From an uncultured virus (IMG/VR IMGVR_UViG_3300025073_000045) (lineage: Duplodnaviria; Heunggongvirae; Uroviricota; Caudoviricetes), in IMG/VR virus record IMGVR_UViG_3300025073_000045, positions 1 through 64,000 of that record: a stretch of 64,000 nt of DNA. The stretch is one strand, 5' to 3'. This document shows positions 1 to 61,761 of the stretch, one piece after another. The notes beneath the pieces were generated by a model. The model saw nothing but the letters and a program-made list of their open reading frames with translations, made no database searches and had not been told where the DNA came from. Each line of letters begins with the position of its first letter. Within the stretch, counting starts at the first letter, position 1. The position numbers were made by a program, and so were the translations under genes.

Positions 1-1178
1 TATGTGGAGCTCAAGGCACACAAGGAATTCAAGGCATTCAAGGATTATGTGGCCCTATCGGCTTATGCGGCTTAACAGGTAATTGTGGCCCTCAAGGAAT
101 TCAAGGAGTAACAGGTAATTGTGGCCCAATCGGCTTATGTGGAGCTCAAGGCACACAAGGAATTCAAGGCATTCAAGGATTATGTGGCCCTATCGGCTTA
201 TGCGGCTTAACAGGTAATTGTGGCCCTCAAGGAATTCAAGGAGTAACAGGTAATTGTGGCCCTCAAGGCATTCAAGGTGTAACAGGCAATTGTGGCCCTC
301 AAGGAGCACAGGGAATTCAAGGCCTATGTGGCCCTCAAGGAGCTCAAGGAATTCAAGGCCTATGTGGCCCTCAAGGAGCTCAAGGAATTCAAGGCCTATG
401 TGGCCCTCAAGGCATTCAAGGTGTAACAGGTAATTGTGGCCCTCAAGGAGCACAGGGAATTCAAGGAGTTTGTGGCTTAACAGGTAATTGTGGCCCTCAA
501 GGAGCACAGGGAATTCAAGGCCTATGTGGCCTTCAAGGAGCACAGGGAATTCAAGGCCTATGTGGCCCTCAAGGAGCTCAAGGAACTCAAGGAATTCAAG
601 GCCTATGTGGTCCTCAAGGCATTCAAGGTGTAACAGGCAATTGTGGCCCTCAAGGAGCACAAGGAATTCAAGGAGTTTGTGGCTTAACAGGTAATTGTGG
701 CCCTCAAGGAGCTCAAGGAATTCAAGGCCTATGTGGCCCTCAAGGAGCTCAAGGAATTCAAGGCCTATGTGGCTCTCAAGGAGCTCAAGGAATTCAAGGC
801 CTATGTGGCCCTCAAGGAGCTCAAGGAATTCAAGGCCTATGTGGCCCTCAAGGCATTCAAGGTGTAACAGGCAATTGTGGCCCTCAAGGAGCACAGGGAA
901 TTCAAGGAGTTTGTGGCTTAACAGGTAATTGTGGCCCTCAAGGAGCACAGGGAATTCAAGGAGTTTGTGGCTTAACAGGCAATTGTGGCCCTCAAGGAAT
1001 TCAAGGAGTAACAGGAAATTGTGGCCCTCAAGGAGCTCAAGGAATTCAAGGCCTATGTGGCCCTCAAGGAGCACAAGGAATTCAAGGAGTTTGTGGTCCA
1101 CAAGGCTCACAAGGAATTCAAGGAGTTTGTGGCTTAACAGGTAATTGTGGTCCTATTGGCTTATGCGGACCAAGTGGC
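1..1178 (+). repeat. Collagen-coding tandem repeat (9-nt unit, higher-order 135-nt duplication)
   Basis: nt 1-127 recurs at 136-262; caaggaattcaaggc and tgtggccctcaagg units are pervasive. Confidence 0.95.
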
Positions 1179-1538
1179 ACAAATGCTATAACAATTGTAG
1201 CAGGAGAAACTTTAGCAGCTGGAAACTTTGTTAATCTTTATTCAAATGCTGGTACAATTAATATGCGTAAAGCAGATAATACTGATAATACTAAACCTGC
1301 TCATGGTTATGTATTAACGGCTGTAACAAGCGGAAATAGTGGAGGATTTTATCAACTAACAGGACTAAATGACCAGTTAACAAGTTTAACAGTAGGTACA
1401 ATATATTTCTTAAGTACAGCGGGTGGAGTAACATCTACACCACCAACTACAGCTGGAAATTTGAACCAAGAATTAGGAATTGCAAAAACTACATCAGCAT
1501 TAGCGGTCTATGAAAGACCTACTATAACAATTGGATAA
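3..1538 (+). CDS. Cys-rich collagen-like fibre protein with a C-terminal DUF2190/capsid-cement-like domain (5' truncated)
   Basis: The frame starting at nt 3 reads CGAQGTQGIQGIQGLCGPIGLCGLTGNC... as uninterrupted Gly-X-Y to about nt 1178. It continues in the same frame as track ORF 1263..1538 (IVAGETLAAGNFVNL...KPAHGYV...GTIYFLSTAGG). Confidence 0.85.
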   Translation, partial: CGAQGTQGIQGIQGLCGPIGLCGLTGNCGPQGIQGVTGNCGPIGLCGAQGTQGIQGIQGLCGPIGLCGLTGNCGPQGIQGVTGNCGPQGIQGVTGNCGPQGAQGIQGLCGPQGAQGIQGLCGPQGAQGIQGLCGPQGIQGVTGNCGPQGAQGIQGVCGLTGNCGPQGAQGIQGLCGLQGAQGIQGLCGPQGAQGTQGIQGLCGPQGIQGVTGNCGPQGAQGIQGVCGLTGNCGPQGAQGIQGLCGPQGAQGIQGLCGSQGAQGIQGLCGPQGAQGIQGLCGPQGIQGVTGNCGPQGAQGIQGVCGLTGNCGPQGAQGIQGVCGLTGNCGPQGIQGVTGNCGPQGAQGIQGLCGPQGAQGIQGVCGPQGSQGIQGVCGLTGNCGPIGLCGPSGTNAITIVAGETLAAGNFVNLYSNAGTINMRKADNTDNTKPAHGYVLTAVTSGNSGGFYQLTGLNDQLTSLTVGTIYFLSTAGGVTSTPPTTAGNLNQELGIAKTTSALAVYERPTITIG

Positions 1539-1563
1539 TAAAAACCTAAATAAAGGAAAAAAT

Positions 1564-2517
1564 ATGTCAGACATCGTAAAAGAAGATAATAATCTTTTAT
1601 CAGTAATCAATCATTCATTATTTGGTTCTGATAGTAATACTAATAAGATCATTACAAGAGCAACAGATGAAAAATTCTTTGAATTAAAAGCACTTGATAA
1701 TGAGACTTTAACTAAGATAGCAGATTTTATGCCAGAAGTAAATAGAGCTACTAATTCATTTGGTAAGACTCAATCTCAATTTATGAATCATGCAATGACC
1801 ATTTCTTCGTTTGGTGTAATACGTAATTTACGTCAAGTGATGTCAGAAATTGAAAGAAGGAGACAAGCTCTTAAAGAAAATACTTTTAAATTAAAGAAAC
1901 AGATAATTGATTTAAAAGAAAAAGAAGAACAACTAAAAGAATTAGTAGAAAAGAATTTATATAATGATAGGTATAAAATTCTACGCCTTCAGATTGATGT
2001 AGAAGAGATTTCTTCAGGAATTACAGATTCAAGACTTTATATTGAGGGAGCTTTAAAAACTATTTACTCATATCAAATGGCATATCAAGATATGATGAAA
2101 AAGAATAATATTCCACCAGATTGGGATGAGAAGACTTTTGAAGAGGATGAAGAAAGGCATCATATAACAAAAGCTTTTCAACAAGCACATGCAGATATGA
2201 TAAGTACTGGTAGAATAGGTCAAGGTAATCATGAATATATGTGGCAATGTGGCATTAATCCACAATCTGCTTTTAATGATTTAGCAGAGTATATTAATCG
2301 TGAAAATATTGAATATACTAATTCAAAAGGTGTAGGGGTATTATCACCAAAAATAGATGGAAAACTTGAAATTGAAAGTTTCATAAAATTCTTGAATGAT
2401 ATGTATGCTAAATATAAAGGAAGTTCAAGAAAAATTCTTGAAATGAAAGGTATCAATGGTGATGGTTATTATGATGCAGCAGTATTTCATGATATTCAAC
2501 AAAAGACAGGTATTTAA
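1564..2517 (+). CDS. Coiled-coil phage protein next to the propeller genes (possible fibre assembly factor)
   Basis: AAGGA RBS precedes the ATG at 1564; the central part is a long heptad-rich helix. Confidence 0.7.
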   Translation: MSDIVKEDNNLLSVINHSLFGSDSNTNKIITRATDEKFFELKALDNETLTKIADFMPEVNRATNSFGKTQSQFMNHAMTISSFGVIRNLRQVMSEIERRRQALKENTFKLKKQIIDLKEKEEQLKELVEKNLYNDRYKILRLQIDVEEISSGITDSRLYIEGALKTIYSYQMAYQDMMKKNNIPPDWDEKTFEEDEERHHITKAFQQAHADMISTGRIGQGNHEYMWQCGINPQSAFNDLAEYINRENIEYTNSKGVGVLSPKIDGKLEIESFIKFLNDMYAKYKGSSRKILEMKGINGDGYYDAAVFHDIQQKTGI

Positions 2518-3492
2518 GTGTCAGAGTACAAAGTTTTAGCATTATATGATGGAATACCTCAAGAATTAAAATCAGGTGATACTGCAGTTATATCAAGACC
2601 ATTATGGTATGGTGAACGTGGAATTATGGGAGGAGGAGAACAACCAGATTGGGGATATTCTTATAATGTTATAGAGTATATTACAATAGCTACAACTGGC
2701 AATTCATCTGATTATGGTGATTTATTACAAAGATTAACTTATATTACTGCTTGCTCAAGCGGAACCAGAGGAATTTTTTCATGTGGTTTTAATTTAATGA
2801 CCGGTAATGTAAGCGTAAATGTTATACAGTATAAAACTATAGCTTCATCTTCAAATGCAGTTGATTTCGGAGATTATAGTACAGAAGCTTATGGTTTATG
2901 CTCAGTATCAAATTATACTAGAGGATTAATTGCTGGTACCGATAATAGAATAAATTATATTACTATTATGTCTTTTGGTAATACAGTTGATTTTGGAGAC
3001 ATGGCTATAGTTAGATATAATACACCTGCTGCAATCTCAAATGGAACAAGAGGACATTTTTGTGGTGGTACTACTACTGGGAATGTGAAAGTAAATAATA
3101 TTGATTATGTAACCATTATGTCTTTGGGTAACTCAGTTGACTTTGGTGACATAACCCAAGAAAGAATATCATTTTATGGATTAGGTGATTTAGTAAGAGG
3201 AATTTGTGCAGGAGGTCAAAAAGCAGGAGATGTTGGTTCTAATGTTATTGATTATATAACATTTTCAATTGCAAGTAATGCAACTGATTTTGGAGATTTA
3301 GTATCTGCAAGATTTGGTGTTAGTGCTACTAATAATGGCAGTAGAGGTATTATTTCTGGTGGACATGGTACTAACGTTATTGAATATATAACTATTCAAA
3401 CTATTGGAAATACAACTGATTTTGGAGATTTAATAAGTAGAGAAAGTGGATATCCAGGAATAAGATTTTCAGGCTCTTGTTCAGGAAATTAA
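2518..3492 (+). CDS. Kelch-like beta-propeller repeat protein 1 (putative adhesin/receptor-binding)
   Basis: About 6 copies of a ~46-aa repeat RG(I/V)FxGG...NVI(D/E)Y(I/V)TIATTGNxxDFGDL; ends in SGN. Confidence 0.75.
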   Translation: MSEYKVLALYDGIPQELKSGDTAVISRPLWYGERGIMGGGEQPDWGYSYNVIEYITIATTGNSSDYGDLLQRLTYITACSSGTRGIFSCGFNLMTGNVSVNVIQYKTIASSSNAVDFGDYSTEAYGLCSVSNYTRGLIAGTDNRINYITIMSFGNTVDFGDMAIVRYNTPAAISNGTRGHFCGGTTTGNVKVNNIDYVTIMSLGNSVDFGDITQERISFYGLGDLVRGICAGGQKAGDVGSNVIDYITFSIASNATDFGDLVSARFGVSATNNGSRGIISGGHGTNVIEYITIQTIGNTTDFGDLISRESGYPGIRFSGSCSGN

Positions 3493-3496
3493 AAAA

Positions 3497-4435
3497 ATGG
3501 CAGAATTCTTACCTCTAATATTAAAAAATGGTAAAATAGATAATTTATCTTTAGGAGATGGATACGTTAGTTTTAATAGTGCTCAAAATTGGGATAGAGG
3601 AATTTTTGCTGGAGGTGGGAATAATGTTATTGATTATGTCTCAATCTCACATAAAGGTAATGCAGCAGATTTTGGTGATGTTGATAATGGAGGTTATACA
3701 GAATCTCTTGGTGCTTGCTCAAGTGGAACTAGAGGGGTTTTTGCTGGCGGCAGAATACCAGGCTCCACTTATTCTGCTCAAATGATTTATATTACAATAG
3801 CTACTTTAGGTAATTCAACAAATTTTGGTAACTTAACTACTTCAGCAAGAAGGGCTATTTCAGGCACCACAAATAAAACAAGAGGAATTTTTTGTGGAGG
3901 TGATGATAACTCATCAATATATACATATATAGATTATATTACAATAGCTACTACTGGTAATTCTACTTCATTTGGATCATTATCATCTTTAGGATCATTT
4001 ACAGGTTCATGCTCTAATAATACTAGAGGAGTTTGTGCAGGAGGTTATGCTACTGGTTTTGTTGCTACAAATATAATTGAATATGTAACAATTGCTACAA
4101 CAGGAAATTCAACAGATTTTGGGGATTTAGTAAGAACTAGTACTTATACTTGTGTTGCTATTTCTGATTTAATTAAAGCTTTATTTTGTGTTATTGGATA
4201 TGCAGATTATGTTACAATAGCAACTACCAGTAATGCTTCTTATTTTAGTGGCTTAATTCCAGGTTCAGTTCAATACTCTTCTGGATGCTCTAATGGATTA
4301 TATGGAATAATAGGTGGTGGTACTAGTGATTCTACTATGATAATATTAGTAAATATTAATACTTCTGCCATGTCTGAAGATTTTGGAGATCTTTCATCAG
4401 CAAGATATTTTACAAGTGCTTTGTCTGGAAATTAA
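3497..4435 (+). CDS. Kelch-like beta-propeller repeat protein 2
   Basis: Same repeat as 2518..3492; ends in SGN. Confidence 0.75.
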   Translation: MAEFLPLILKNGKIDNLSLGDGYVSFNSAQNWDRGIFAGGGNNVIDYVSISHKGNAADFGDVDNGGYTESLGACSSGTRGVFAGGRIPGSTYSAQMIYITIATLGNSTNFGNLTTSARRAISGTTNKTRGIFCGGDDNSSIYTYIDYITIATTGNSTSFGSLSSLGSFTGSCSNNTRGVCAGGYATGFVATNIIEYVTIATTGNSTDFGDLVRTSTYTCVAISDLIKALFCVIGYADYVTIATTSNASYFSGLIPGSVQYSSGCSNGLYGIIGGGTSDSTMIILVNINTSAMSEDFGDLSSARYFTSALSGN

Positions 4436-4456
4436 ACCTAATAAAAGGATAAATAA

Positions 4457-5083
4457 ATGAAAGTAAACATATTAATTGGAACTCCTGCTTATAATAGTCA
4501 GATACATATTGACTATCTTAATTCAATTATCGATATGCATAGATTGAAGTTACCTATTTCAGTTATGTGTATAGGTAATGAAAGTCTTATTACAAGAGGA
4601 CGTAATACTATTATTTCTTTTTTCAAGACTCATGAAGAATTCACACATCTGTTGTTTTTAGATGCAGATATTGGTATAAAAGGTGACAGTATTATAAAGT
4701 TAATACAACATGAAAAAGATGTTATAGGTGCTCCTGTTCCATTAAAAGGTTTTGATTCAAATGGTAATAAAGTCTATAATATTACAAATCCAATTAAAGA
4801 AGAAAATCTTTATACAGTAGATAAAGTGGGAACGGCGGTTTTCATGTTATCAAGGAAAGCAGTTGAAGATCTTTGTAATAACTCAGATACTTATAATGGT
4901 AATACAATGTCAAGAGGTCTTCAGAATAATAATATTAATTATGATGTTTTCAAAACAGGAATTGAAAATGAGATATACTTAAGTGAAGATTATTATGCAT
5001 GCAAGAAACTTAAAGAATTAGGTTATAAAATATATATTGACGATACAATAATAACAATCCATAATGGAATGTTTCAATTTTAG
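4457..5083 (+). CDS. GT-A fold (GT2-like) glycosyltransferase
   Basis: Motifs ILIGTPAY, ESLITRGRN, HLLFLDAD (DxD), GTAVFML, LSEDYYAC, and a C-terminal H-x-G. Confidence 0.8.
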   Translation: MKVNILIGTPAYNSQIHIDYLNSIIDMHRLKLPISVMCIGNESLITRGRNTIISFFKTHEEFTHLLFLDADIGIKGDSIIKLIQHEKDVIGAPVPLKGFDSNGNKVYNITNPIKEENLYTVDKVGTAVFMLSRKAVEDLCNNSDTYNGNTMSRGLQNNNINYDVFKTGIENEIYLSEDYYACKKLKELGYKIYIDDTIITIHNGMFQF

Positions 5084-5092
5084 AGTAAGAAT

Positions 5093-6028
5093 ATGCCAGA
5101 AAAAATACCTCTCGTAGGAAAAGACGGTAAGATAATTGAACTAAATTGGGGTGATAGTTTAAAAAACAATTTAGTTTGGATTGGAGACAGAGGAATATTA
5201 GGATTTTTGGTTAATGATGCACTTACTGCATTAAATAATATAAGCTATGTAACCATTACATCAACAGGTAATGCGGCAGATTTCGGAGATCTTACTTTAG
5301 CTAGATATAGAGCAGCAGGTTGCTCAAGCGGAACTAGAGGAGTTTTTGCTGGTGGTGCTGTTACTTACAATGAAATAGACTATATTACTATTGCTACATT
5401 AGGAAATGCCATTGATTTTGGAGATCTTACTAATTCAATGAGTTTAGACATTTCTGGTTGTTCAAATACTATACGGGGTATTATATCTAGTAATGCTAAC
5501 TCACAAAGAATGGATTATATTACTTTTGCTACTAACGGGAATTCAATAAATTTTGGCAATATAACTGTTGCTAGAAATAATCCGAGCGGTTGTTCAAGTT
5601 CTATAAGAGGTATTTTTGGAGGGGGAAATTATGGTGGAAATTATAATACTATTGATTATGTAACTATAGCTTCATCTTCAAATGCAGTTGATTTTGGAGA
5701 TTTAACCGTTGCTAGAAATACTACTGGGGCTTCTTCTAATACTATTAGAGGCGTTTTTGGAGGAGGAGAAACTTCCACAAACATTATAGATTATATTACA
5801 ATAGCAACTACTAGTAACGCGGCAGACTTTGGAGATCTTACTTCAGCTAGAAATGGTGTAACTGGTTGTTCAAACTTGACACGCTCGTTATTTAATGGAG
5901 GTTATTCTGGTGGACCTCTTAATACTATTGATTATGTTACAATAAATACTCTTGGAAATGCAGTAGACTTTGGTGATATTAATGCTGGTGTATATTCATA
6001 TACAAGTGTTGCTTTTTCAGGAAATTAA
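5093..6028 (+). CDS. Kelch-like beta-propeller repeat protein 3
   Basis: Same repeat (IDYVTIASSSNAVDFGDL); ends in SGN. Confidence 0.75.
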   Translation: MPEKIPLVGKDGKIIELNWGDSLKNNLVWIGDRGILGFLVNDALTALNNISYVTITSTGNAADFGDLTLARYRAAGCSSGTRGVFAGGAVTYNEIDYITIATLGNAIDFGDLTNSMSLDISGCSNTIRGIISSNANSQRMDYITFATNGNSINFGNITVARNNPSGCSSSIRGIFGGGNYGGNYNTIDYVTIASSSNAVDFGDLTVARNTTGASSNTIRGVFGGGETSTNIIDYITIATTSNAADFGDLTSARNGVTGCSNLTRSLFNGGYSGGPLNTIDYVTINTLGNAVDFGDINAGVYSYTSVAFSGN

Positions 6029-6040
6029 AAGGAGATTAAA

Positions 6041-6694
6041 ATGATATATTTTATTTATAAAACACTACAGATTACTGGTATTGGAGGAGTCTCTATACCA
6101 ACTATTGATGGGATAAATGGAGGACAAGGCTCTTATAAAGAATGGTTATTGGGTACTACAGATTCTGCTTTAAAACTTTCCCAGATTAAAGAATTTCAAC
6201 CTAGAATATTAAAAGAAGAAATTTGGAGAGGCTTATCTCTTATTGGATTACTTCAAGTATTTGATACTTCAATGAATCAATTAAGAAATCTAACTCCAAC
6301 AGAAATTATATATCAAAAAGCTGCTACTAATTGGGAATTTAAAGAAAATGCAAGAAATTTGATTGAGATAACAGTTGGTGATCCTCTTAAACAAATAGCT
6401 AATGTGGATCAGCAATCTCAATTAACTACTCCTGTAATAGTTAGAATGTATAAATTAGTATTAGCTTTATATGCTCATTTAAGCTTGGCTATCCCTGAAG
6501 ATATCTTGCCAGCAGCAACAAAATCGCAGTATGATAATTTTACAGATTTATATTTATATAAAATAGGATCATTACAATTAATTGACAGGATTGATGTTGA
6601 TCCAGATCCAGCTGCTCTTATTGATGATGTATTAACCAATATCCATAACATTGGTTTAGCTCTTAAAACTGAGTATTATGATAAAAAGGTATAG
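6041..6694 (+). CDS. Hypothetical protein (possible fibre-associated chaperone)
   Basis: AGGAG RBS; 217-aa ORF directly after the propeller genes. Confidence 0.55.
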   Translation: MIYFIYKTLQITGIGGVSIPTIDGINGGQGSYKEWLLGTTDSALKLSQIKEFQPRILKEEIWRGLSLIGLLQVFDTSMNQLRNLTPTEIIYQKAATNWEFKENARNLIEITVGDPLKQIANVDQQSQLTTPVIVRMYKLVLALYAHLSLAIPEDILPAATKSQYDNFTDLYLYKIGSLQLIDRIDVDPDPAALIDDVLTNIHNIGLALKTEYYDKKV

Positions 6695-6695
6695 T

Positions 6696-7283: not shown

Positions 7284-7300
7284 CATTAGAGGATTTAAAA

Positions 7301-7768
7301 ATGTGTGAAATATTAGATGAAAAAATTGAGAATACAAAAAAGATATCATCAGCTATTTCTGAGCTAGTATCTACAATGACAAGTAATAAGCATTCAGTTT
7401 TTTTCTTAGAAACTTTAATGGATAATATACCTATTATGGTATTTTTTAAGGATACTAATAATAGATTGATAAAAGTAAATAAATATTTCTGCGATTTAGC
7501 TGGCACAACCAAAGATAAGATTGAGGGTAAAAGAAGTGATGATTTTGCAGAAACAGAACATGAAAAAGAATTAGTTAAACATTATGGAGAGAATGATTTA
7601 GATGTAATTAATTCTAAAAAACCAAAACTTAATATTATAGAGAATTTCTTTAATACAAATATACAAATAAGAACGCATAAATTCCCAATTATTCAGAATG
7701 ATGAAGTAGTGGGGGTTTTTGGCATTAGTATTGAACTAAATACACTTAATCATATTGGAGTTCACTAG
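7301..7768 (+). CDS. Stand-alone PAS (PAS_4/PAC) domain protein
   Basis: LETLMDNIPIMVFFKDTNNRLIKVNKYFCDLAG...IEGK...D..VI...THKFPIIQNDEVVGVFGISIE fits the PAS-PAC pattern; GAGG RBS. Confidence 0.85.
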   Translation: MCEILDEKIENTKKISSAISELVSTMTSNKHSVFFLETLMDNIPIMVFFKDTNNRLIKVNKYFCDLAGTTKDKIEGKRSDDFAETEHEKELVKHYGENDLDVINSKKPKLNIIENFFNTNIQIRTHKFPIIQNDEVVGVFGISIELNTLNHIGVH

Positions 7769-8178: not shown

Positions 8179-8187
8179 GAGGATTAA

Positions 8188-8640: not shown

Positions 8641-9121
8641 AATATTTCTTGTTTGTTCTGTTTTAACAGCACAGAGTATTACTCCAGTAGGCTTAGACTT
8701 AATCAAGCATTATGAATCTTTTAAGTCTGAAGCCTATTTATGTCCAGCAAAAGTATTGACAATAGGATATGGCTCAACAGGCACACATGTAAAAGCTGGG
8801 ATGAGGGTCACAGAACTACAAGCCACTTTATTATTAAAAAAAGATGTAAAAAGATTTGAATCTCATATTAAAAATAGAGTAAGTAGACTTTTAATATGGA
8901 ATGAATTTGACGCATTAACCAGTTTTACATTTAATGTAGGTTATCGTGTTACTAAAGGTTTACAAACCTTTGTAAACCAAGGTAATACTAATGGTGTAAT
9001 AATGAAATTAATGCAATATAATAAAGCTAAAGTTAATGGAGTCTATATTATATTAAAGGGTTTAACAAAAAGAAGAATAAGTGAATCAACTTTATATAGA
9101 GATGGAGTTTTAGCATGGTAA
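8621..9121 (+). CDS. GH24 phage lysozyme (endolysin) with an N-terminal export signal
   Basis: E32-x8-C41-x5-T47 triad (HYES..AYLCPAKVLTIGYG), FDALTSFTFNVG, GLTKRRISE. Confidence 0.9.
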   Translation: MLKHLIKIFLVCSVLTAQSITPVGLDLIKHYESFKSEAYLCPAKVLTIGYGSTGTHVKAGMRVTELQATLLLKKDVKRFESHIKNRVSRLLIWNEFDALTSFTFNVGYRVTKGLQTFVNQGNTNGVIMKLMQYNKAKVNGVYIILKGLTKRRISESTLYRDGVLAW

Positions 9122-9645
9122 GAAGAATTGCTCCTAGTCAGATAGCCAATGCAGTAAGTGGCCAACCAAATGGTATTAGAACTGCTTATGCATACGATGA
9201 ATCATTTGGTTGTAAGAAGAAAAAAGTAATTGCTAATGCTTGTAAACCTAAAAAAGGACATACTGGAGTACAATCATCCACTGGCTCAAAAGGGTTATCA
9301 GGTCATCAAGGCTCACCTGGAAAATCTGGATTATCAAGAGTATCAAGCTCTTATTATTATGATCCACTAAAAAATCCTAAAGAGGCTCATATTACTAATG
9401 CAAAAAAATCTCCTATGGCTCGTGTTGGTAAATCAAACGGCCGCTGGAAAGGTGGTGTTAGTAAAACTTATTATAGAAGGATTGCAGGAGCAAAACCAAA
9501 TGATGGTACAATTGTTCATCACAAAGACCATGACAAGAAAAATCCAAGTAGGAAAAATCTTGAAAAAATAAAACCTGGCAAGAAAATCTCTGCTAGAGGT
9601 AAACATAATCAAAGACATCCAAACAGGCGAAATGGTAAAGCATAA
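9115..9645 (+). CDS. Basic HNH-motif protein
   Basis: GKSNGRWKGG and IVHHKDHDKKN..RKNL...H...H. Confidence 0.65.
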   Translation: MVRRIAPSQIANAVSGQPNGIRTAYAYDESFGCKKKKVIANACKPKKGHTGVQSSTGSKGLSGHQGSPGKSGLSRVSSSYYYDPLKNPKEAHITNAKKSPMARVGKSNGRWKGGVSKTYYRRIAGAKPNDGTIVHHKDHDKKNPSRKNLEKIKPGKKISARGKHNQRHPNRRNGKA

Positions 9646-9785: not shown

Positions 9786-9787
9786 AA

Positions 9788-10045
9788 ATGACTCCTGAAG
9801 TAAAAAAACAAAGAACTGAAAAAATCATTGAGTTATTAAGGCCTATGATTGAAAGAGCTATATCAATTAATGAAGATACACCTTCGGGAATTGAGATTCA
9901 TAAACCAATAGCTTTTTTACTTGAGAAATTTAATACTGGTAAATATTATGGTACTATAGAGATGAAAATCACTGGTACTAGTATTCATAATCCAACTGAA
10001 AATAATGTAACACACAGACTTGATATGAGTTATCAAATTGAGTGA
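9788..10045 (+). CDS. Hypothetical protein
   Basis: GAGG RBS, 85 aa. Confidence 0.65.
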   Translation: MTPEVKKQRTEKIIELLRPMIERAISINEDTPSGIEIHKPIAFLLEKFNTGKYYGTIEMKITGTSIHNPTENNVTHRLDMSYQIE

Positions 10046-10898: not shown

Positions 10899-13800
10899 AT
10901 GCCAATTATAATTGAACATAGTCAAGGATATTTAGTAAAACAGAGATTAATAGATGAGAGTAACTCTGCAGTATCAAGTGGTGATTGGGCTACAGTTTCT
11001 ATTGGTGGTAATTCAATTGATGTTACTAAAAGAACTAATATAGTTGTTTATCCAACTGCAGATACTGATATTAATTCTTTTGGTGGAGGGATAGATGCTC
11101 AAAGAATTGTATTAGTAAATGGCTCAAGTTCATATGATTTGAATATGAAGCTTTCTGTTATTGGGCATGATTCTACTTTTGTCTTATTACCTGGTCATTC
11201 TGCTACTTATATTTATAATGCTGCAACTTATGTATGGGCATTTGAAGGTACTTCAGAATTTATTGGGGAAATGAAATATATTTATATGCGAGCAGCTACT
11301 CAACCAATAACTCCTGATTTTGAAGATTATGTTCCAGTTGATTGGTTTGCTGTTCCTCCAGAGCCTAATATTGATGAAGATCCTTTATGGATGTCATTTG
11401 CAGTTGTCGTTGGAGTAAAACCAAAAGGTAATTGGGCAACACCTTTACAACTTGATGGTGTTGTTGGACTTTGTGGTCCTGCTGGCTTATGTGGATTAGT
11501 TGGTTTTTGCGGTATTCAAGGCTTATGTGGCCCTCAAGGTGTTCAGGGAGCTCAAGGAGAAGTTGGAGCTTGTGGTGTACCTGGCCTTTGTGGCCCTCAA
11601 GGTGTTCAGGGAGCTCAAGGTGTTGTAGGTTTTTGTGGTGTTCAAGGCTTATGTGGCCCACAAGGTGTTCAAGGAGCTCAAGGTGTTGTAGGATTCTGCG
11701 GTATTCAAGGCTTATGTGGCCCTCAAGGTGTTCAGGGAGCTCAAGGTGTTGTAGGTTTTTGTGGTGTTCAAGGCTTATGTGGCCCTCAAGGCGTTCAAGG
11801 CTCTCAAGGCATTCAAGGATTATGTGGTCAAACAGGTTTATGTGGCCCTCAAGGCGTTCAAGGCTCTCAAGGTGTTCAAGGATTATGTGGTCAAACAGGT
11901 TTATGTGGCCCTCAAGGCGTTCAAGGCTCTCAAGGTGTTCAAGGATTATGTGGTCAAACAGGTTTATGTGGCCCACAAGGTGTTCAAGGAGCTCAAGGTG
12001 TTCAAGGATTATGTGGTCAAACAGGTTTATGTGGCCCTCAAGGCGTTCAAGGCTCTCAAGGTGTTCAAGGATTATGTGGTCAAACAGGTTTATGTGGCCC
12101 TCAAGGTGTTCAAGGCTCTCAAGGCGTTCAAGGACTATGTGGCCTTATTGGCTTATGTGGTCCTCAAGGCGTTCAAGGCGCTCAAGGTATTTGTGGTCCA
12201 CAAGGTTCACAAGGTATTTGTGGCCCTCAAGGTAATGCAGGTATACAAGGAATTGATGGAGAGCAAGGCCCACAAGGATATTGTGGAGCTCAAGGTCCAA
12301 GAAGTTGGTCTTACTCTATTGCTCAAAATACAAATTTATGGGTTATGTTTGGGGTAAATCATGATAATACTGGGGCAGATTATATAACTACTCATACGCC
12401 AATTATATCAACATTATCTATAAATAGTGCAATCTTTATGTTATTTAATCCTATTTCAAATAAACATTATTTGATGTGGTCATTAAATGCATGCACAATT
12501 ACAGTTACATTAGATGGAGTTTCTCAAACTATATCTCCAAACACAAATGGAGAAGGTTCACTAGAATTAACTAGTGGTTGGGCTTTACTTACTGTGTCTC
12601 AATCTGGCGAAGCAAATGAATTCCGCTTTTATGATTGGACTCTTAATACATATGCTGTACTTGATAATGGTATTTCAGTCAATATACGCCCTGGTGGTCC
12701 AAAAGGGGCTGTTGGAGATTGTGGCCCTCAAGGAGCCTGTGGTTTAGTTGGTAATTGTGGTGCACAGGGAATTCAAGGTTTATGTGGCATACAAGGCACA
12801 CAAGGAATTCAAGGCCTATGTGGCCCTCAAGGAGCTCAAGGAATTCAAGGCTTATGTGGCCCTCAAGGCTCACAAGGAATTCAAGGCAGTTGTGGTTTAC
12901 AAGGCTTATGTGGTATACAAGGAGCTCAAGGAATTCAAGGCTTATGTGGCTCTCAAGGCTCACAAGGAATTCAAGGCTTATGTGGCCCTCAAGGCTCACA
13001 AGGAATTCAAGGTAATTGTGGCCCTATTGGCTTATGCGGAGTTCAGGGTACACAAGGAATTCAAGGCTTATGTGGCCCACAAGGTGCTCAAGGAATTCAA
13101 GGAGTTTGTGGCCCACAAGGTGCTCAAGGAATTCAAGGTAATTGTGGCCTTCAAGGTTTATGTGGAGCTCAAGGCACACAAGGAATTCAAGGCTTATGTG
13201 GTCCACAAGGTGCTCAAGGTTTATGTGGCATACAAGGCACACAAGGAATTCAAGGCTTATGTGGCCCACAAGGTGCTCAAGGAATTCAAGGTTTATGTGG
13301 CCCACAAGGTGCTCAAGGAATTCAAGGAGTTTGTGGCCCACAAGGTATTTGTGGTATACAAGGCCAACAAGGACCTCAAGGTTTATGTGGACAACAAGGC
13401 GCTCAAGGTATTTGTGGTATACAAGGCCAACAAGGACCTCAAGGTTTATGTGGACAACAAGGCGCTCAAGGTATTTGTGGTATACAAGGCCAACAAGGAC
13501 CTCAAGGTTTATGTGGACAACAAGGCGCTCAAGGTATTTGTGGTATACAAGGCCAACAAGGACCTCAGGGTCCATGTGGTCCTTGTGGAGCTCAAGGAAT
13601 TCAAGGAGCTCAAGGACCTACAGGATTCTGTGGTGGTCAGGGTGTTTTAGGTACAGTATTAGCTTCTGGTGTAACAATAAATGCAGGTGGATATTTTAGG
13701 ATAGGATCTGGAGATAAAGATGATACTTTGACTGGTATTTGGATAGATGATACTGAAATAGTAGCTCAAGATGGAAATGGTACAGATACTGTACGTATAG

Positions 13801-14702
13801 GAGTTGATGGTTCATTTTATGCTATTAAAGGCACAATAGCAGGATTCACCATAGAAGAAACATGGTTATATACTGGAACTATATCAACTACTAAAATTGT
13901 AATTAATGCTGCTTCTGACTCAATCTATGCAAGACCTTTGGGTGCTGGAGCTAATACTAAGTATGTAATGCTAGGTCAAACCCATGATGGTACAAACTGG
14001 ACAGGTAACTATGGAATAAGTGCTGTCGATGGTAGTAATAGAATGCTTTTTAGAATTGATGATTCTGTTAAATCAATTGCTGGTTGGAATTTTGACTATC
14101 AAAGCTTTTCAAATATCACAACTGGTACTGGTATTGAATTAAGTGTTGGTACTACAAAAAATGTCACTACAGGATTTTCAGTTTTTAATCCTTCAAGTCC
14201 AAAATTGTTTATTGGAGACTCAACCTATTTTTTAGATTGGAATAATGGAAGTGGAAGTGGTACTACTGGTAAATTAACTATAAAAGGAGATATTATAGGG
14301 AGCAGGTTTTCCACCGAATCTACAAATGTTTTTGATGGTTCTAATGGTACTTATGCTTCACTACATCATGTGAGTGGAACTCCTATTTTATTTATGGAGA
14401 AATTTACTGATACTAGTAATTATACTATTGTGAACTTTACACCTGGTTCAATAGTAAATAGTGTAGCTGGATTTTTATATGCTACTTTAGTAAGTGCTGG
14501 AACTACAATTGGTTTAATAGAAATGGGTTGTGGGAATACAGCTGATTCTGCTTTTATAAAAATTGATAGTATGCATGTTGCTAGATGGAGGGGAAGATTT
14601 GCAACTGATCCTACTACTAATAATAGAGAAGGTGATATGGGATATCACACTGGTACTTCGGTAGTTAGATTATATACTAATGGTGCTTGGACAAATGTAT
14701 AA
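10899..14702 (+). CDS. Long fibre protein with two Cys-rich collagen blocks and a beta-rich C-terminal domain
   Basis: Gly-X-Y blocks at about 11457-12302 and 12696-13653 separated by a ~130-aa globular insert. The C-terminus has GTIAGFTI / SIAGWNF fibre motifs. Confidence 0.85.
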   Translation: MPIIIEHSQGYLVKQRLIDESNSAVSSGDWATVSIGGNSIDVTKRTNIVVYPTADTDINSFGGGIDAQRIVLVNGSSSYDLNMKLSVIGHDSTFVLLPGHSATYIYNAATYVWAFEGTSEFIGEMKYIYMRAATQPITPDFEDYVPVDWFAVPPEPNIDEDPLWMSFAVVVGVKPKGNWATPLQLDGVVGLCGPAGLCGLVGFCGIQGLCGPQGVQGAQGEVGACGVPGLCGPQGVQGAQGVVGFCGVQGLCGPQGVQGAQGVVGFCGIQGLCGPQGVQGAQGVVGFCGVQGLCGPQGVQGSQGIQGLCGQTGLCGPQGVQGSQGVQGLCGQTGLCGPQGVQGSQGVQGLCGQTGLCGPQGVQGAQGVQGLCGQTGLCGPQGVQGSQGVQGLCGQTGLCGPQGVQGSQGVQGLCGLIGLCGPQGVQGAQGICGPQGSQGICGPQGNAGIQGIDGEQGPQGYCGAQGPRSWSYSIAQNTNLWVMFGVNHDNTGADYITTHTPIISTLSINSAIFMLFNPISNKHYLMWSLNACTITVTLDGVSQTISPNTNGEGSLELTSGWALLTVSQSGEANEFRFYDWTLNTYAVLDNGISVNIRPGGPKGAVGDCGPQGACGLVGNCGAQGIQGLCGIQGTQGIQGLCGPQGAQGIQGLCGPQGSQGIQGSCGLQGLCGIQGAQGIQGLCGSQGSQGIQGLCGPQGSQGIQGNCGPIGLCGVQGTQGIQGLCGPQGAQGIQGVCGPQGAQGIQGNCGLQGLCGAQGTQGIQGLCGPQGAQGLCGIQGTQGIQGLCGPQGAQGIQGLCGPQGAQGIQGVCGPQGICGIQGQQGPQGLCGQQGAQGICGIQGQQGPQGLCGQQGAQGICGIQGQQGPQGLCGQQGAQGICGIQGQQGPQGPCGPCGAQGIQGAQGPTGFCGGQGVLGTVLASGVTINAGGYFRIGSGDKDDTLTGIWIDDTEIVAQDGNGTDTVRIGVDGSFYAIKGTIAGFTIEETWLYTGTISTTKIVINAASDSIYARPLGAGANTKYVMLGQTHDGTNWTGNYGISAVDGSNRMLFRIDDSVKSIAGWNFDYQSFSNITTGTGIELSVGTTKNVTTGFSVFNPSSPKLFIGDSTYFLDWNNGSGSGTTGKLTIKGDIIGSRFSTESTNVFDGSNGTYASLHHVSGTPILFMEKFTDTSNYTIVNFTPGSIVNSVAGFLYATLVSAGTTIGLIEMGCGNTADSAFIKIDSMHVARWRGRFATDPTTNNREGDMGYHTGTSVVRLYTNGAWTNV
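11457..13653 (+). repeat. Two collagen-coding repeat arrays containing 63-nt higher-order units
   Basis: GLCGQTGLCGPQGVQG(S/A)QGVQ occurs about 5 times; GICGIQGQQGPQGLCGQQGAQ occurs about 3-4 times. Confidence 0.95.
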
Positions 14703-14714
14703 AAAGGAGTTATA

Positions 14715-15140
14715 ATGTATATATATGCTAATTTAGATAACCAAAAAATTGTCAGGGGTATAAATACTTCTGACATAGAATTAGAATCAAGTCTTACTCA
14801 GGTTCTTATTGGGACTGTAAACCTCTCTCAATCTGATGGTAGTACAGAAATGCTTAATGCTTATAAGATGATAAACAATTTTAAATATGAAGCTGGTTTA
14901 TTTAATTTAATTAATACTAAATTAATAGATAAAGCTTCTTTCATCTTAAGATTTACTCCAATTGAACTTATGAACTTATCAATTTTATCTTCACAGAATG
15001 TAGAAGCACAAAGCATTCTATTAAATTTAAGTTCAACTGGAAATATCGATGTATTTTCTATTAATACTAAAGACATGTTATTAAAGCTTGTTGAATTAAC
15101 AATTCTTTCTATAGAAAGAGTAAATATCATTCTTACTTAA
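14715..15140 (+). CDS. Tail-fibre-associated protein
   Basis: F-x-x-RFT-x-x-E and a terminal ILSxERxxxIL pattern seen in fibre-adjacent phage proteins. Confidence 0.5.
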   Translation: MYIYANLDNQKIVRGINTSDIELESSLTQVLIGTVNLSQSDGSTEMLNAYKMINNFKYEAGLFNLINTKLIDKASFILRFTPIELMNLSILSSQNVEAQSILLNLSSTGNIDVFSINTKDMLLKLVELTILSIERVNIILT

Positions 15141-15152
15141 AAAGAGGAACAT

Positions 15153-15542
15153 ATGAAAGTCCAAACAGAAATAATCATAGCTTCAGAGAAAGCTATGAAA
15201 GAGCTTGTAAACAGTGAAATACCGATTGACATATCTTTTAATATTGCTAATATTATGGATGATGTTTTAAAGGTAATTAATGTTTATAGAGCTCAAGAGC
15301 TGAAATTATATAAGAAGTATGGAGAAATGAAAAAGGATACACCAACCTCAGAAGAAGGATGGTTTGTACCTTTTAATCATCCAAAAATTGATGAATTTAA
15401 TGAAGAAATAAAGAAATTATCAAAAGTAGAAGTTGATCTTAAAATTGAAAAGATACCTTTAAAAGAATTAGGCTTAATTAAAATTAAACCCCTTTCATTA
15501 AAATTATTATTAAGCTGGCTAATAGAAGGACAACCTTCATGA
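15153..15542 (+). CDS. DUF1617-like phage protein
   Basis: LYKKYGE...F.EE...L...EV.L pattern; GAGG RBS. Confidence 0.5.
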   Translation: MKVQTEIIIASEKAMKELVNSEIPIDISFNIANIMDDVLKVINVYRAQELKLYKKYGEMKKDTPTSEEGWFVPFNHPKIDEFNEEIKKLSKVEVDLKIEKIPLKELGLIKIKPLSLKLLLSWLIEGQPS

Positions 15543-16354
15543 AACAGTTATTAGAAGCTATTAAAGCTCAGTTAGTATCAATATTGGTAATTATACTATT
15601 AGGATTTGCAATTTATTTTGGTTGGAATCAAATTCAAGAGTTAAAGAAAGAAAATGAAAGACTTGTAACCATTCAAACTAATAATATGAAAGCCTTAGGA
15701 GATTCACTTCGAATGTTGATAGATGCTCAAGGCCATAGACTTTATCAGCAGATGGGTTTTTATCAAGACATACAAAGAAGACAAAATGAGACTTTAGAAG
15801 ATCAAGGTTTTGAATTACGTTCAATACAGGATTTGACGCTTAGCTTGATTAAAATAGTTGTTAGAATTGATTCTGGAAAAACTCAATATACTGATAGCAC
15901 TATTGTAAGAACATTCAAAAAAGACACTTTATGGGTATCAATAGATGGTAAAACTGTTATTAATACCAAAAATGATACTAGATCTTTTACAGAATTAAGT
16001 ATTTTGTCAAAACCCATTCCTATTGAAGTAGCAGTAAGTCAAAATGAGAAAGGTGAAATTGTTGGATCAGTAAAGTGTTTAATTCCAGGTGTAGAATTAA
16101 GATCTTTAAAAACATCTGTTGATCCAGGTTTATATGCAGGACAAAAAGCTAATCCGACTTTCTTTGAGTTACTTAAAATTGGTGGCCTAGTTGGTATAAG
16201 TGACCAATACGGAATTAATATAAATAAACTCCAAGCAGTGTATGGTTTAGAAATAATGTATGATAGTTATGGAGTTTGGTATGTTAAAACTGGTCAGAAT
16301 AACACCTATGGAATAAAAGTTTCTAAATCAATTAAAGATATATTTAAATTCTAA
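15539..16354 (+). CDS. Putative spanin-like protein
   Basis: N-terminal TM, coiled coil, and C-terminal amphipathic beta-strands ending in Phe. Confidence 0.45.
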   Translation: MKQLLEAIKAQLVSILVIILLGFAIYFGWNQIQELKKENERLVTIQTNNMKALGDSLRMLIDAQGHRLYQQMGFYQDIQRRQNETLEDQGFELRSIQDLTLSLIKIVVRIDSGKTQYTDSTIVRTFKKDTLWVSIDGKTVINTKNDTRSFTELSILSKPIPIEVAVSQNEKGEIVGSVKCLIPGVELRSLKTSVDPGLYAGQKANPTFFELLKIGGLVGISDQYGININKLQAVYGLEIMYDSYGVWYVKTGQNNTYGIKVSKSIKDIFKF

Positions 16355-16382
16355 TGCTCCTGCTAGTTGCATTAGACTTTTA
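16351..16382 (+). terminator. Weak hairpin/terminator before the head module
   Basis: ctaatgc-N11-gcattag followed by acttttattt. Confidence 0.35.
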
Positions 16383-16395
16383 TTTATATTATACT
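16367..16395 (+). promoter_or_regulatory. Sigma70-type promoter for the head operon
   Basis: TTGCAT (16367-72), 17-nt spacer, TATACT (16390-95). Confidence 0.6.
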
Positions 16396-16428
16396 AAATC
16401 AAAGAGTTAATAAGAACCGAGGTAATTT

Positions 16429-17586
16429 ATGATTATAAGCACACATCCAAAAGACATTGGTCTGGCAGATGCAATTGATGAGAAAGAAAGACTTGATATA
16501 TGCTTATCAGTTACAATGTCAGAAGATGATGGTGACGAAGATAGTCCCAAACGTGCTAAGATAGAAGCTATTACTGCTGGTTGGAATTTAAATGATATTT
16601 ATATTCCAACAGAGGTTTTGCCTATTATATTAGAATTTATAATGGCTAAACCAAAGATTTATGTCAATCATGATTTATATGCTTATATGGGCAGAGATGT
16701 TTTTGAATGGGCTGCTACTTATGAGAATGTAAAGCTCAATGAAGATAAAACTAAAATCGTTGGTGACATTGTCTTTACAGCAAATCCAAAGACATTCTGG
16801 TTGTATAAAGAATGTAAGCGCAATGCAAAAGATGTTCAATTCTCAATGCATTTCTCTGCAATCAGTCAAGAATATAAAGATGAAGCCCAGAATAGAACTG
16901 GAATGAAAGTTGTAGGTATTAATGCTTACAAGTCAACAGATATTGTGTCTTATGGAGCAGCAGGTGGTCAAGCTCTACAAGTCTATAATTCTATTGTACA
17001 GGAAAAATTAAATAAGTTTCAAACTAATCAATCAAACCAAGAGGAGAAGTTAAAGATGGAAATTAAATCTACGCAAGATTTACTTGCCAACTATCCTACT
17101 TTAGTAGCAGAAATTGTAAATGCTGAACTTGCTAAAAAAGAAAAGGAGACTGCTATTTCTCAATCATCTCAGAAAGTAACAGAATTAACAAATTCGGTTA
17201 CTGCATTAACATCTGAAAAGACTGATTTAGCGGCAAAAGTAACAGAATTAACAAATTCGGTTACTGCATTAACAACTAAAAACACTGAATTGACTGCAGA
17301 AGTTGATAAGTATAAAGCTGTTGAACAGTTGAATGCTTGGAAAACCGAAGTTGAAACAGAAATCACAAACTCACAAATTGACTCGCGTCTTGTAACACCT
17401 TTGTTTAAGGATACTTTATTTGCTCAAAAAGAAATTGGTATCGTTAAAAACATGTTGGAAGACAGAAAATCATTAACTACCGGTTCTGTTATTCAAAATG
17501 GCTCAGCAGCAGGCTCAGCAACAGATTCAGAAACTAAACCTAAATTATCAGATGATGACATTGCTAATGGCATCAAAAAGAAGTAA
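16429..17586 (+). CDS. Prohead protease fused to a scaffold domain
   Basis: GWNLN..Y, KIYVNH, FS, STDIVSYGAAGG (HK97/herpes-type protease pattern); coiled-coil C-terminus; upstream of cement and capsid genes. Confidence 0.75.
   Translation: MIISTHPKDIGLADAIDEKERLDICLSVTMSEDDGDEDSPKRAKIEAITAGWNLNDIYIPTEVLPIILEFIMAKPKIYVNHDLYAYMGRDVFEWAATYENVKLNEDKTKIVGDIVFTANPKTFWLYKECKRNAKDVQFSMHFSAISQEYKDEAQNRTGMKVVGINAYKSTDIVSYGAAGGQALQVYNSIVQEKLNKFQTNQSNQEEKLKMEIKSTQDLLANYPTLVAEIVNAELAKKEKETAISQSSQKVTELTNSVTALTSEKTDLAAKVTELTNSVTALTTKNTELTAEVDKYKAVEQLNAWKTEVETEITNSQIDSRLVTPLFKDTLFAQKEIGIVKNMLEDRKSLTTGSVIQNGSAAGSATDSETKPKLSDDDIANGIKKK
17056..17586 (+). CDS. Nested in-frame scaffold protein
   Basis: GAGGAG at 17041 precedes an in-frame ATG at 17056 (MEIKSTQDL...). 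Confidence 0.55.
   Translation: MEIKSTQDLLANYPTLVAEIVNAELAKKEKETAISQSSQKVTELTNSVTALTSEKTDLAAKVTELTNSVTALTTKNTELTAEVDKYKAVEQLNAWKTEVETEITNSQIDSRLVTPLFKDTLFAQKEIGIVKNMLEDRKSLTTGSVIQNGSAAGSATDSETKPKLSDDDIANGIKKK
17173..17274 (+). repeat. 39-bp perfect direct repeat with a 63-nt period in the scaffold coiled coil
   Basis: aaagtaacagaattaacaaattcggttactgcattaaca at 17173-17211 and 17236-17274. Confidence 0.9.
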
Positions 17587-17635
17587 AATTTTTCAAATGC
17601 TGTAAAAATAATAATAAATTAATTGGAGAAGTAAC

Positions 17636-18187
17636 ATGAACGTTAAAATCAGAATTCCTGGAGATGAGAGATTTGATTTAATCTCTGTCCCAGTTGAAGC
17701 TGCTACTGTGATTGCTAACGGTGATCTTGTTTCTTATGAATCAGGATACGCTGTTAAGCTTGATGCTGAAGCAGAAGATGCAACATTTGTTGGTGTTTGC
17801 GAAAGAGGTTCAAATCTTAATGAAACAACACCAATTACAGTTTGGAGAAAAGCTATTGTTGAAGCTACTGTTGATTCAGCAGCTTTTGCAATTGGTGATG
17901 GAATTTCTCTTTCTGCTGGTGGTACTCTTGAAAAAGCTGGTGATAACATCTTAATGCATTGCTTTGAAAGCAGTGTTGGTGTTTCAGTAACAACTGTTAA
18001 AGCAGTTATTGATGTACAATCTCTTGGCAAGTTGTTTGCTACAAATGCTACTGTTGGACTTTGTGGTCCTGCTGGCTTATGCGGCCCTATTGGTCTTTGT
18101 GGTCCAGAAGGTTTATGTGGCCCAATCGGTTTATGTGGTCCAGAAGGATTATGTGGCCCTATCGGCTTATGTGGTCCTGGTATTTAA
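17636..18187 (+). CDS. DUF2190-like capsid cement/decoration protein with a C-terminal (GLCGPx)7 collagen tail
   Basis: VEAATVIANGDLV...FVGV; located between protease and capsid genes; ends VGLCGPAGLCGPIGLCGPE...GLCGPGI. Confidence 0.8.
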   Translation: MNVKIRIPGDERFDLISVPVEAATVIANGDLVSYESGYAVKLDAEAEDATFVGVCERGSNLNETTPITVWRKAIVEATVDSAAFAIGDGISLSAGGTLEKAGDNILMHCFESSVGVSVTTVKAVIDVQSLGKLFATNATVGLCGPAGLCGPIGLCGPEGLCGPIGLCGPEGLCGPIGLCGPGI

Positions 18188-61750: not shown

Positions 61751-61761
61751 TACTATTTCCT

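Follow-up and report, generated by a model that had tools for sequence, protein, structure and literature searches.

Gly-X-Cys collagens of an uncultured tailed phage and a linked glycosyltransferase cassette that may S-glycosylate them

The window analysed here is the whole stretch of 64,000 nucleotides that forms the first 64 kb of virus record IMGVR_UViG_3300025073_000045, a 77,451-bp single contig of ~30% G+C from an uncultured tailed phage (Caudoviricetes). It encodes collagen-like virion proteins whose Gly-X-Y repeats carry Cys at position Y, together with several glycosyltransferase (GT) domains. Why would a phage line its collagens with Cys, and do the GTs act on these residues? In this phage, Cys has taken the Y slot held by Thr in the common Gly-X-Thr/Gln collagens of phages and bacteria. 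In other phages, relatives of the two large GT genes are followed directly by Gly-X-Cys collagen genes, and the answer favored here is that these enzymes may glycosylate the collagens on Cys.

Cysteine at the Y position of phage collagens

Three virion genes carry the repeats, and counts under translation table 11 place Cys at Y in 102 of 346 triplets, Cys at X in 0/346, and Thr at Y in 20/346. Every count of the initial annotation, which had described Y as mostly Gln or Cys, was reproduced. The pattern lies far beyond chance, since background Cys amounts to only 0.79% (144 of 18,134 codons in 53 other open reading frames, ORFs). The three genes are real collagen-like virion proteins, namely two fibers and a head cement protein with a short collagen spike, and their repeats are predicted to form triple helices. 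Coordinates are collected in Table 1.

The fiber gene at the left edge of the window begins beyond that edge, and assemblies break inside its collagen repeat. Its N-terminus and the first repeats are found on a sister contig (L425:4443..4949), where they follow the terminase and portal genes at the opposite genome end; there, ~63 residues come before the first triplet. Within the window, the repeat is a single run of 131 unbroken triplets (Y = 74 Gln, 37 Cys, and 14 Thr), followed by a C-terminal globular domain of 117 amino acids (aa). The second fiber consists of an N-domain (residues 1-186), a first collagen block (187-468), a middle domain, a second block (600-920), and a C-terminal domain. 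Its blocks contain runs of 94 and 107 triplets with Gln at 119 Y positions and, as first annotated, 58 Cys, all at Y (27 + 31). A shorter allele of this fiber, P0056, indicates variation in repeat number.

The cement protein ends in a (GLCGPx)7 tail (18056..18181) of 14 triplets, with seven Cys, again all at Y as the initial annotation had it, and no Ser or Thr. The tail scores 20.1 bits against PF01391, under the 27.2-bit cut-off. The gene sits between a protease/scaffold-like gene and the major capsid gene, directly upstream of the latter. The N-domain has seven homologues of 135-143 aa that are 38-62% identical and all lack a collagen tail. Within this family, PF09956 (Phage_cement_2) matches 3/8 members (best E 1.4e-5) and PF22758 matches 2/8; the window's own protein itself matches neither. 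Its identity as a cement protein rests on its position upstream of the capsid gene and from the seven homologues, some of which match Phage_cement_2. Because all seven stop where the tail begins, the tail is an addition in this phage.

The repeats are almost devoid of charge, as had been noted: Asp, Glu, Lys, and Arg together make up 0/393 residues in the collagen part of the left-edge fiber, 6/603 in the 1267-aa fiber, and 2/42 in the cement tail. The residue at X ahead of Cys is L, N, V, I, or F, and successive Cys are mostly 2 or 4 triplets apart. Pro occupies the X position after Cys in 27/37 cases in the left-edge fiber, 26/58 in the 1267-aa fiber, and 7/7 in the cement tail, and in 88/88 cases in L303, a 210-kb phage contig with collagens of its own. 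Pro is thus usually the next X residue in low-GC lineages, giving a G-x-C-G-P context. The two fiber genes have ~42% G+C versus ~30% for the genome, and GGC accounts for 61/131 Gly codons in the left-edge gene versus 101/1112 elsewhere. This composition fits a module acquired from outside or strong repeat homogenization.

Two trivial explanations of the Cys pattern were rejected. A wrong frame or strand is contradicted by the collagen being in frame with non-repeat N-terminal, middle, and C-terminal domains; the other reading frames are open only within the repeats, and the homologues of the cement N-domain back the assigned frame. Recoding was dismissed as well. TGT is the codon of 95/102 collagen Cys, and it also encodes the catalytic Cys of a C5-methylase, both Cys of the PCxxC zinc site of dCMP deaminase, a zinc-finger Cys of the primase, and a Cys of the lysozyme. 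As TGT encodes these conserved catalytic and zinc-binding Cys, the genetic code is standard; the window holds no tRNA gene.

Cys at Y is rare among related collagens. A full HMMER search with the left-edge fiber against 1.84 billion representatives gave 80,256 matches. Of the 150 best, which were inspected, 141 lack Cys at Y and eight carry a single one there; the sole Cys-rich match, with 36/124, is P0056, the phage's own allele. In 149/150, Y is mostly Gln or Thr. The trait nonetheless occurs in at least five other phage lineages. Across 15 Gly-X-Cys proteins from at least six lineages, including this phage, Cys stands at Y 479 times and at X never, and reaches up to 46% of Y positions. Thr occurs 185 times at Y and 27 times at X, and Ser 35 times at Y and 97 times at X. 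Cys therefore acts positionally like Thr, as both are biased to Y while Ser is not. Thr or Ser is kept at Y in 14/15 of these proteins, and in L303 Thr equals Cys.

Scans for such collagens are prone to error, and real and artefactual cases were told apart by inspection. Most "GPC" collagens of the first DNA-pattern scan were rejected as short broken ORFs antisense to Gly-Pro-Gln collagen. Since the antisense of GGN CCA CAR reads Cys-Gly-Pro, naive scans are full of false matches, and antisense (Gly-Pro-Cys)n artefacts are seen in viral contigs L019, L050, L065, L053, L032, L074, and others. In a second, stricter scan, 39/116 loci had an ORF with at least five Cys at Y; L207, L201, and L134 are real, in frame with non-repeat fiber domains, as are the copies of this phage, and the rest were discarded as short simple repeats such as (GIC)n. 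Real Gly-X-Cys contigs comprise G001 (61% G+C, three genes), G002 and G003 (GFC-GAT repeats), and G004 (36% G+C), and later searches added L263, L430, L431, L432, L434, and L303. G002 also carries, between its capsid and GFC-GAT collagen genes (L255:1152..2138), a TagF-like CDP-glycerol glycerophosphotransferase (Pfam E 5.3e-8), which hints at another kind of collagen decoration in this high-GC phage. A literature search, with most subscription journals outside its coverage, found neither a natural Gly-X-Cys collagen nor an S-glycosylated phage protein. A 2026 preprint (10.64898/2026.07.03.736451) describes Cys enrichment in gut-phage capsid proteins, where the residues are mostly buried, a different phenomenon.

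A two-gene glycosyltransferase cassette linked to Gly-X-Cys collagens

The four GT domains and the GT-fused methyltransferase of the initial annotation were confirmed, by Pfam and, for the two domains with a GT-A fold, by models and fold searches. Three of the GT domains belong to two adjacent minus-strand genes, a methyltransferase fused to a GT4 domain and a 707-aa protein in which a GT-A domain, tetratricopeptide repeat (TPR)-like helices, and a GT4 domain follow one another (GT-A-TPR-GT4). The GT4 domains score 69.2 and 50.6 bits against PF00534 (cut-off 26.4 bits). The first 380 residues of the 707-aa protein match no Pfam family, and a hidden Markov model search returned nothing significant for them. 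A model of this region based on nine family members has a predicted local distance difference test score (pLDDT) of 84 and a GT-A fold. Its best matches are polypeptide GalNAc-transferases, with a Foldseek E of 1.9e-7 to ppGalNAc-T2 and a VIA Z-score of 15.8 to GalNAc-T1 over 230 residues at a root-mean-square deviation of 3.9. The TPR-like helices that follow reach a VIA Z of 10.7 over residues 278-359, along with weak matches to consensus-TPR profiles.

Comparison with the phage contig G004 ties these enzymes to the collagens. Apart from the two cassette genes (each at 49% identity) and a Gly-X-Cys collagen, the otherwise unrelated G004 matches this phage only in a polymerase and a helicase, at 26-28% identity. 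In G004, the methyltransferase-GT4, GT-A-TPR-GT4, and collagen genes overlap end to end in the tail-fiber module, behind tail-collar and beta-helix fiber genes. The GT-A-TPR-GT4 family is small, with 9 proteins in 5.8 billion clusters and loci in three viral and seven metagenome contigs, two of which are this phage itself. Eight loci are thus foreign, and two of their contigs end too soon downstream to be informative. A Gly-X-Cys collagen gene comes next after the cassette in all six informative foreign loci (G004, L263, L430, L431, L432, and L434), where ORFs were taken as stop-to-stop frames and contig ends truncate the collagen ORFs of L432 and L434. Among informative loci, GT-A-TPR-GT4 is the one enzyme type found only with Cys collagens. 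This pattern points to the cassette belonging with collagen fibers, and we read the two large GTs as a mobile cassette that travels with Gly-X-Cys collagen. By eye, the N-terminal ~17 residues of the 1267-aa fiber (MPIII..GYLVKQRL) resemble the start of the collagens behind the foreign cassettes. The small ORF behind the cassette in the window (57312..57650) was considered as a collagen remnant and rejected.

The GT4 domain belongs to a wider subfamily with the same habit. Its profile finds more than 450 relatives each in viral and bacterial collections, of which the best 80 viral and best 79 bacterial loci were counted. Among the bacterial loci, mostly of Bacillota but also of Nocardia, 42/79 contain a collagen-like ORF, within 500 bp in 32 cases and upstream, on the same strand, and within 2 kb in 32. 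In all 42, Y is Thr/Ser and never Cys-rich. The viral loci contain a collagen-like ORF in 27/80 cases (21/47 for loci of at least 10 kb), with Thr dominant in 24/27 and a Cys-rich repeat in 3/27. Cyanophage S-CAM7 has its GT within the tail module, immediately behind two Gly-X-Thr proteins. L303 has its GT directly upstream of two Thr/Cys/Gln collagens, and the unrelated, high-GC G001 has a subfamily GT4 two genes away from its three Gly-X-Cys genes. The GT4 subfamily is best read as comprising collagen-repeat glycosyltransferases. A phylogeny of 84 GT4 domains places those of this phage, G004, and L263 in a single clade with full support, and the G001 enzyme nests in a clade whose members accompany Thr collagens. 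Measured against this tree, Cys collagens have therefore arisen two or more times.

Some of these loci have features of their own. Behind the collagen-associated GT4 of S-CAM7 (L257), L258, L259, and L260 come a conserved protein of ~255 aa and, after it, one of ~200 aa, in a slot annotated in S-CAM7 as a 2-oxoglutarate (2OG)-Fe(II) oxygenase. Such cyanophage-like loci may represent a collagen hydroxylation-plus-glycosylation cassette. The GT4 gene of L303 (L303:10001..11065) has two in-frame TGA codons and is otherwise well aligned. When TGA is treated as a sense codon, the long ORFs add up to more than twice the length obtained when TAG is treated as one. The L303 phage probably reads TGA as an amino acid.

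The fourth GT domain is a small stand-alone GT-A protein. After its top match, the minimal viral GT-A STIV A197, its fold best resembles the GT domains of two animal collagen hydroxylysine glycosyltransferases, LH3 and COLGALT1 (Foldseek E 3e-8 to 8e-8, template modeling score ~0.5), which glycosylate Y-position residues of collagen. The likeness extends only to the common GT-A fold at 10-12% identity, Pfam found no lysyl hydroxylase or 2OG oxygenase among the selected ORFs of this phage, and its collagen blocks are almost free of Lys. No counterpart was found in contigs G004, G001, G002, or G003. The view that the window's GTs are collagen enzymes is supported for the two large proteins through their linkage, and is conjectural for this small one, which is absent from the foreign cassette loci. 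It is flanked by three paralogous ~310-aa proteins (2518..3492, 3497..4435, and 5093..6028), built of ~45-residue repeats (…GTRG-I/V-F-x-GG … N-x-IDY-I/V-TIAT-x-GN-x-x-DFGDL…), each ending in SGN. Many of these repeats contain N-x-S/T triplets, and the proteins match no Pfam family, just phrog_19111 of unknown function.

What the cysteines may be for

The reading we favor is that the cassette glycosylates the Gly-X-Cys collagens on Cys. Its probability is put at about 0.5, since beyond gene linkage and folds everything in it is what we infer rather than observe: whether the collagens are substrates of the cassette, whether Cys receives the sugar, and in which order the enzymes work. It is the simplest reading in that Cys occupies the Thr slot, is confined to Y, is the sole possible acceptor in the cement tail, and is accompanied by an enzyme built like SgtA of Clostridioides difficile. 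In the proposed scheme, the GT-A/TPR module would dock on the unfolded or folded repeat, for which the conserved N-terminal fiber peptide (MPI..G-aromatic-..K..L) might be a TPR docking signal, and would attach an initial sugar to the Cys thiol at G-x-C-G(P) sites. The GT4 domains could then extend the glycan, and the methyltransferase could cap a sugar. Each chain of the collagen fibers and capsid spikes would bear dozens of S-linked, possibly methylated glycans, giving a dense mucin-like coat over fibers and capsid. That this amounts to a dedicated phage S-glycosylation system for a structural protein, with a three-gene module that spreads between unrelated phages, is a more tentative proposal, to which we give slightly less than an even chance.

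Known systems offer partial parallels. SgtA combines GT-A and TPR regions and attaches beta-O-GlcNAc to Thr in the collagen repeats of the exosporium glycoprotein BclA3, and the two genes adjoin (PMC7157674). The phage enzyme shares this GT-A plus TPR build, here identified by model and fold, and the putative acceptor slot at Y; adjacency of enzyme and collagen genes is seen in 6/6 foreign loci and not in this phage. The comparison is one of build and not of sequence, the slot holds Cys rather than Thr, the setting is a phage virion rather than a spore, and the phage enzyme has an extra GT4 domain and a methyltransferase-GT4 partner. The Gly-X-Thr systems of S-CAM7 (gp014-gp016) and Bacillota share the GT4 subfamily (31-38% identity), its pairing with a collagen-like gene, and repeats that are rich in Gln and poor in charge. 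They differ in having Thr/Ser at Y, in lacking the GT-A-TPR-GT4 partner, and, in many cases, in carrying a 2OG-Fe(II) oxygenase. In mycobacteriophages, as Freeman et al. are said to have described in 2023, phage GTs and a methyltransferase reportedly decorate the phage's own capsid and tail proteins with glycans O-linked to C-terminal extensions, and neither collagen repeats nor Cys are involved.

Precedent for sugars on Cys is narrow. Apart from stray O-GlcNAc transferase sites, the only proteins known to us to be S-glycosylated are a few small bacteriocins. The glycocin enzymes SunS, ThuS, and PalS are GT-A enzymes. They are described as the only well-studied enzymes that attach sugar to a Cys thiol in ribosomal peptides (PMC6405829). 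Their targets are small bacteriocins with one or two modified Cys, whereas the phage collagens would offer dozens in a structural repeat, and beyond the GT-A fold no specific likeness to the phage enzyme appears among the matches listed.

Several findings weigh against S-glycosylation. Any specific kinship with SunS-type enzymes is conjectural: no chain named SunS or ThuS is among the fold matches listed for the GT-A model, in listings of capped length, and the GT-A fold is common. Most Gly-X-Cys collagens keep Thr/Ser at Y, so the linkage could be due to O-glycosylation alone. Since the six positive loci stem from one ancestral module, with enzymes of 46-90% mutual identity in about five groups, they do not count as separate events. 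The cassette of this phage sits in the replication and DNA-modification arm, on the minus strand, flanked by primase/dCMP deaminase and DNA methylase genes and next to a probable DNA-hypermodification set, ~40 kb or more from each collagen gene. Pfam scans of selected ORFs, drawn from the window, the remainder of its contig, and the sister contig and spanning most of the ~122-kb genome, revealed no nucleotide-sugar pathway genes. G002 and G003, which are 27% and 15% complete, show no GT4. The initial annotation knew of no phage collagen described with this Cys pattern, and the trait in fact recurs in at least five other lineages. Co-occurrence of Gly-X-Cys collagens with such GTs is seen in the cassette being followed by Gly-X-Cys genes in 6/6 loci; any PF00534 match occurs in 3/5 Cys-collagen contigs versus 5/13 Thr/Gln-collagen contigs, and its presence was abandoned as a test of Cys-specific co-occurrence for this failure to separate the two. 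Of the original proposal that Cys replaces Thr as an S-glycosylation acceptor, what stands is the occupation of the Thr slot, the confinement to Y, and the linkage of two large GTs, one of them SgtA-like.

Disulfide cross-linking, also named in the initial annotation, is a live alternative. It would be combined with O-glycosylation: the cassette would modify the remaining Thr/Ser, and the Cys, free in the reducing cytoplasm of the host, would oxidize after lysis into inter-helix disulfides that bundle fibers or tie capsid spikes. The persistence of Thr/Ser in all but one of the 15 Gly-X-Cys proteins suits this idea, as does the position of the G001 GT4 inside the Thr-collagen clade, from which no special enzyme seems needed, and outside the cell a phage thiol oxidase would be unnecessary. 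Within a collagen triple helix, the Y side chains of the three strands lie ~8 Å apart. The Y thiols of one trimer are therefore restricted to inter-helix disulfides, a constraint that counts against the idea. So do the cement tail, which has the same GLCGP repeat without any Ser/Thr, and the complete absence of Cys from X (0/479), although X is also exposed and able to cross-link. Other virion proteins show no general Cys enrichment, and no Dsb, Erv, or thioredoxin genes were found by Pfam among the selected ORFs, many of which belong to no family. Collagen peptides with a terminal Cys oxidize on storage to cross-linked polymers (PMC3491313). Cys in the triple-helical setting of animal collagens and collagen peptides, such as the collagen III cystine knot and GPC-ended peptides, can oxidize to cross-links; those Cys are few, sit at helix ends, and form Cys-Cys pairs or single termini, whereas here they are spread along the whole helix. 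We regard this combination as the chief rival, though a rather unlikely one.

Two other explanations fit the linkage data poorly. The Cys might be working free thiols, used for soft-metal binding, thiol-disulfide adhesion, or redox buffering, while the GTs serve another target. The thiols would be very dense and exposed in an uncharged, hydrophobic context, and Cys is described as needed for the surface adhesion of short collagen peptides (PMC3491313). This explanation is improbable, as it accounts neither for the 6/6 succession of GT-A-TPR-GT4 and Gly-X-Cys genes nor for the confinement of Cys to the Thr position, and the repeats, with their spacing of mostly 2 or 4 triplets, show no His or Cys pairing typical of metal sites. 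Alternatively, the cassette might target modified DNA bases or host surface glycans and adjoin collagens only as part of shared variable fiber modules. Its place in this genome, next to primase/dCMP deaminase on one side and three DNA methylases on the other with thymidylate-synthase-like, ThyX, kinase, and dUTPase-like genes nearby, is in keeping with a DNA target, and fiber-region GTs of marine myophages have been interpreted as host lipopolysaccharide modifiers (PMC7029224). G004 nevertheless retains the cassette at 49% identity in 60 kb without DNA-modification homologues, and the same GT4 subfamily pairs with collagen genes in bacteria. An unspecific neighborhood predicts the commoner Thr/Gln collagens (149/150) and not Cys in 6/6. 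A Pfam scan of the three GT proteins (E <= 0.01) gave no match to the T4 alpha- or beta-GT DNA glucosyltransferase families and listed just GT1/GT4 and methyltransferase families, plus weak matches to Anp1/DUF5672. Of the explanations considered, a DNA or host-glycan target is the least credible and is very improbable.

Genome setting and implications

The window is part of a phage genome of ~122 kb, a size shown by two other contigs of the same phage that overlap it. One is a viral contig of 79,949 bp; the other measures 121,445 bp, and its capsid gene is 100% identical. From position 1 to 38.5 kb, the plus strand encodes fibers, lysis proteins, protease/scaffold, cement, capsid, tail tube, and tail proteins; from 38.8 kb on, the minus strand carries replication and nucleotide/DNA-modification genes. 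Neither the capsid nor the cement protein has a match among 50,697 GenBank phage records.

Table 1. Positions in the window of the collagen, capsid, and glycosyltransferase genes
Feature	Position	Strand	Basis
Collagen-like virion fiber, 3' part (left-edge fiber)	3..1538	+	Pfam Collagen E 5.8e-59; 5' end open
Small stand-alone GT-A, 208 aa	4457..5083	+	Model pLDDT 90; Foldseek STIV A197 E 3.4e-9
1267-aa fiber	10899..14702	+	Pfam Collagen E 1.5e-83
Head cement/decoration protein, N-domain (residues 1-~138) and collagen tail	17636..18187	+	Position, homologues
Major capsid protein	18260..19450	+	Pfam Phage_capsid_4 E 7.2e-17
Cassette gene 2, 707 aa: GT-A (1-~200), TPR-like repeats (~277-365), GT4 (~380-703)	57762..59885	-	Pfam (GT4), model
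Cassette gene 1: S-adenosylmethionine (SAM) methyltransferase (~57-199) fused to GT4/GT-B (~236-607)	59882..61750	-	Pfam; phrog_3408 E 1.3e-66

Several neighboring genes merit description in their own right. A densely packed DNA-modification set (window 55491..64000; G000 64001..~67600; L423:6961..9020) includes a dCMP deaminase, two C5-cytosine methylases, an N4/N6 methylase, DUF1599, two thymidylate-synthase-like proteins, ThyX, a dNMP-kinase-like protein, and a dUTPase-like protein. Its gene content points to modified cytosine or uracil in the phage DNA. A PAS-domain protein (7301..7768; three PAS families above cut-off) sits among the fiber and lysis genes, and a small basic protein (9115..9645) combines a weak HNH endonuclease match (E 3.7e-4, below cut-off) with a six-triplet collagen-like stretch without Cys. 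The same phage, with 100% identical GT and capsid genes, also occurs on the 121-kb contig L342, which was binned in a metagenome-assembled genome labeled as a nanoarchaeon. The phage carries a phage lysozyme (PF00959) and an SLT transglycosylase, as for a peptidoglycan-bearing bacterial host, and the nanoarchaeon binning is thus probably wrong.

If S-glycosylation of these collagens is real, the virion would wear a "thio-mucin" that glycosidases and beta-elimination cannot strip. Its proteins, with hundreds of Cys acceptors in fibers and capsid spikes, would be the first S-glycoproteins with a structural role and the first in a virion. The enzyme pair and the simple G-x-C-G-P repeat would then provide a means of making hydrolysis-resistant glycoconjugates on a rigid rod, and the finding would bear on how proline-poor, charge-free microbial collagens gain stability. 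Even if the Cys serve in cross-linking, a collagen that has Cys at as many as 46% of its Y positions and at none of its X positions, present in several phage lineages, is unmatched in our literature search.

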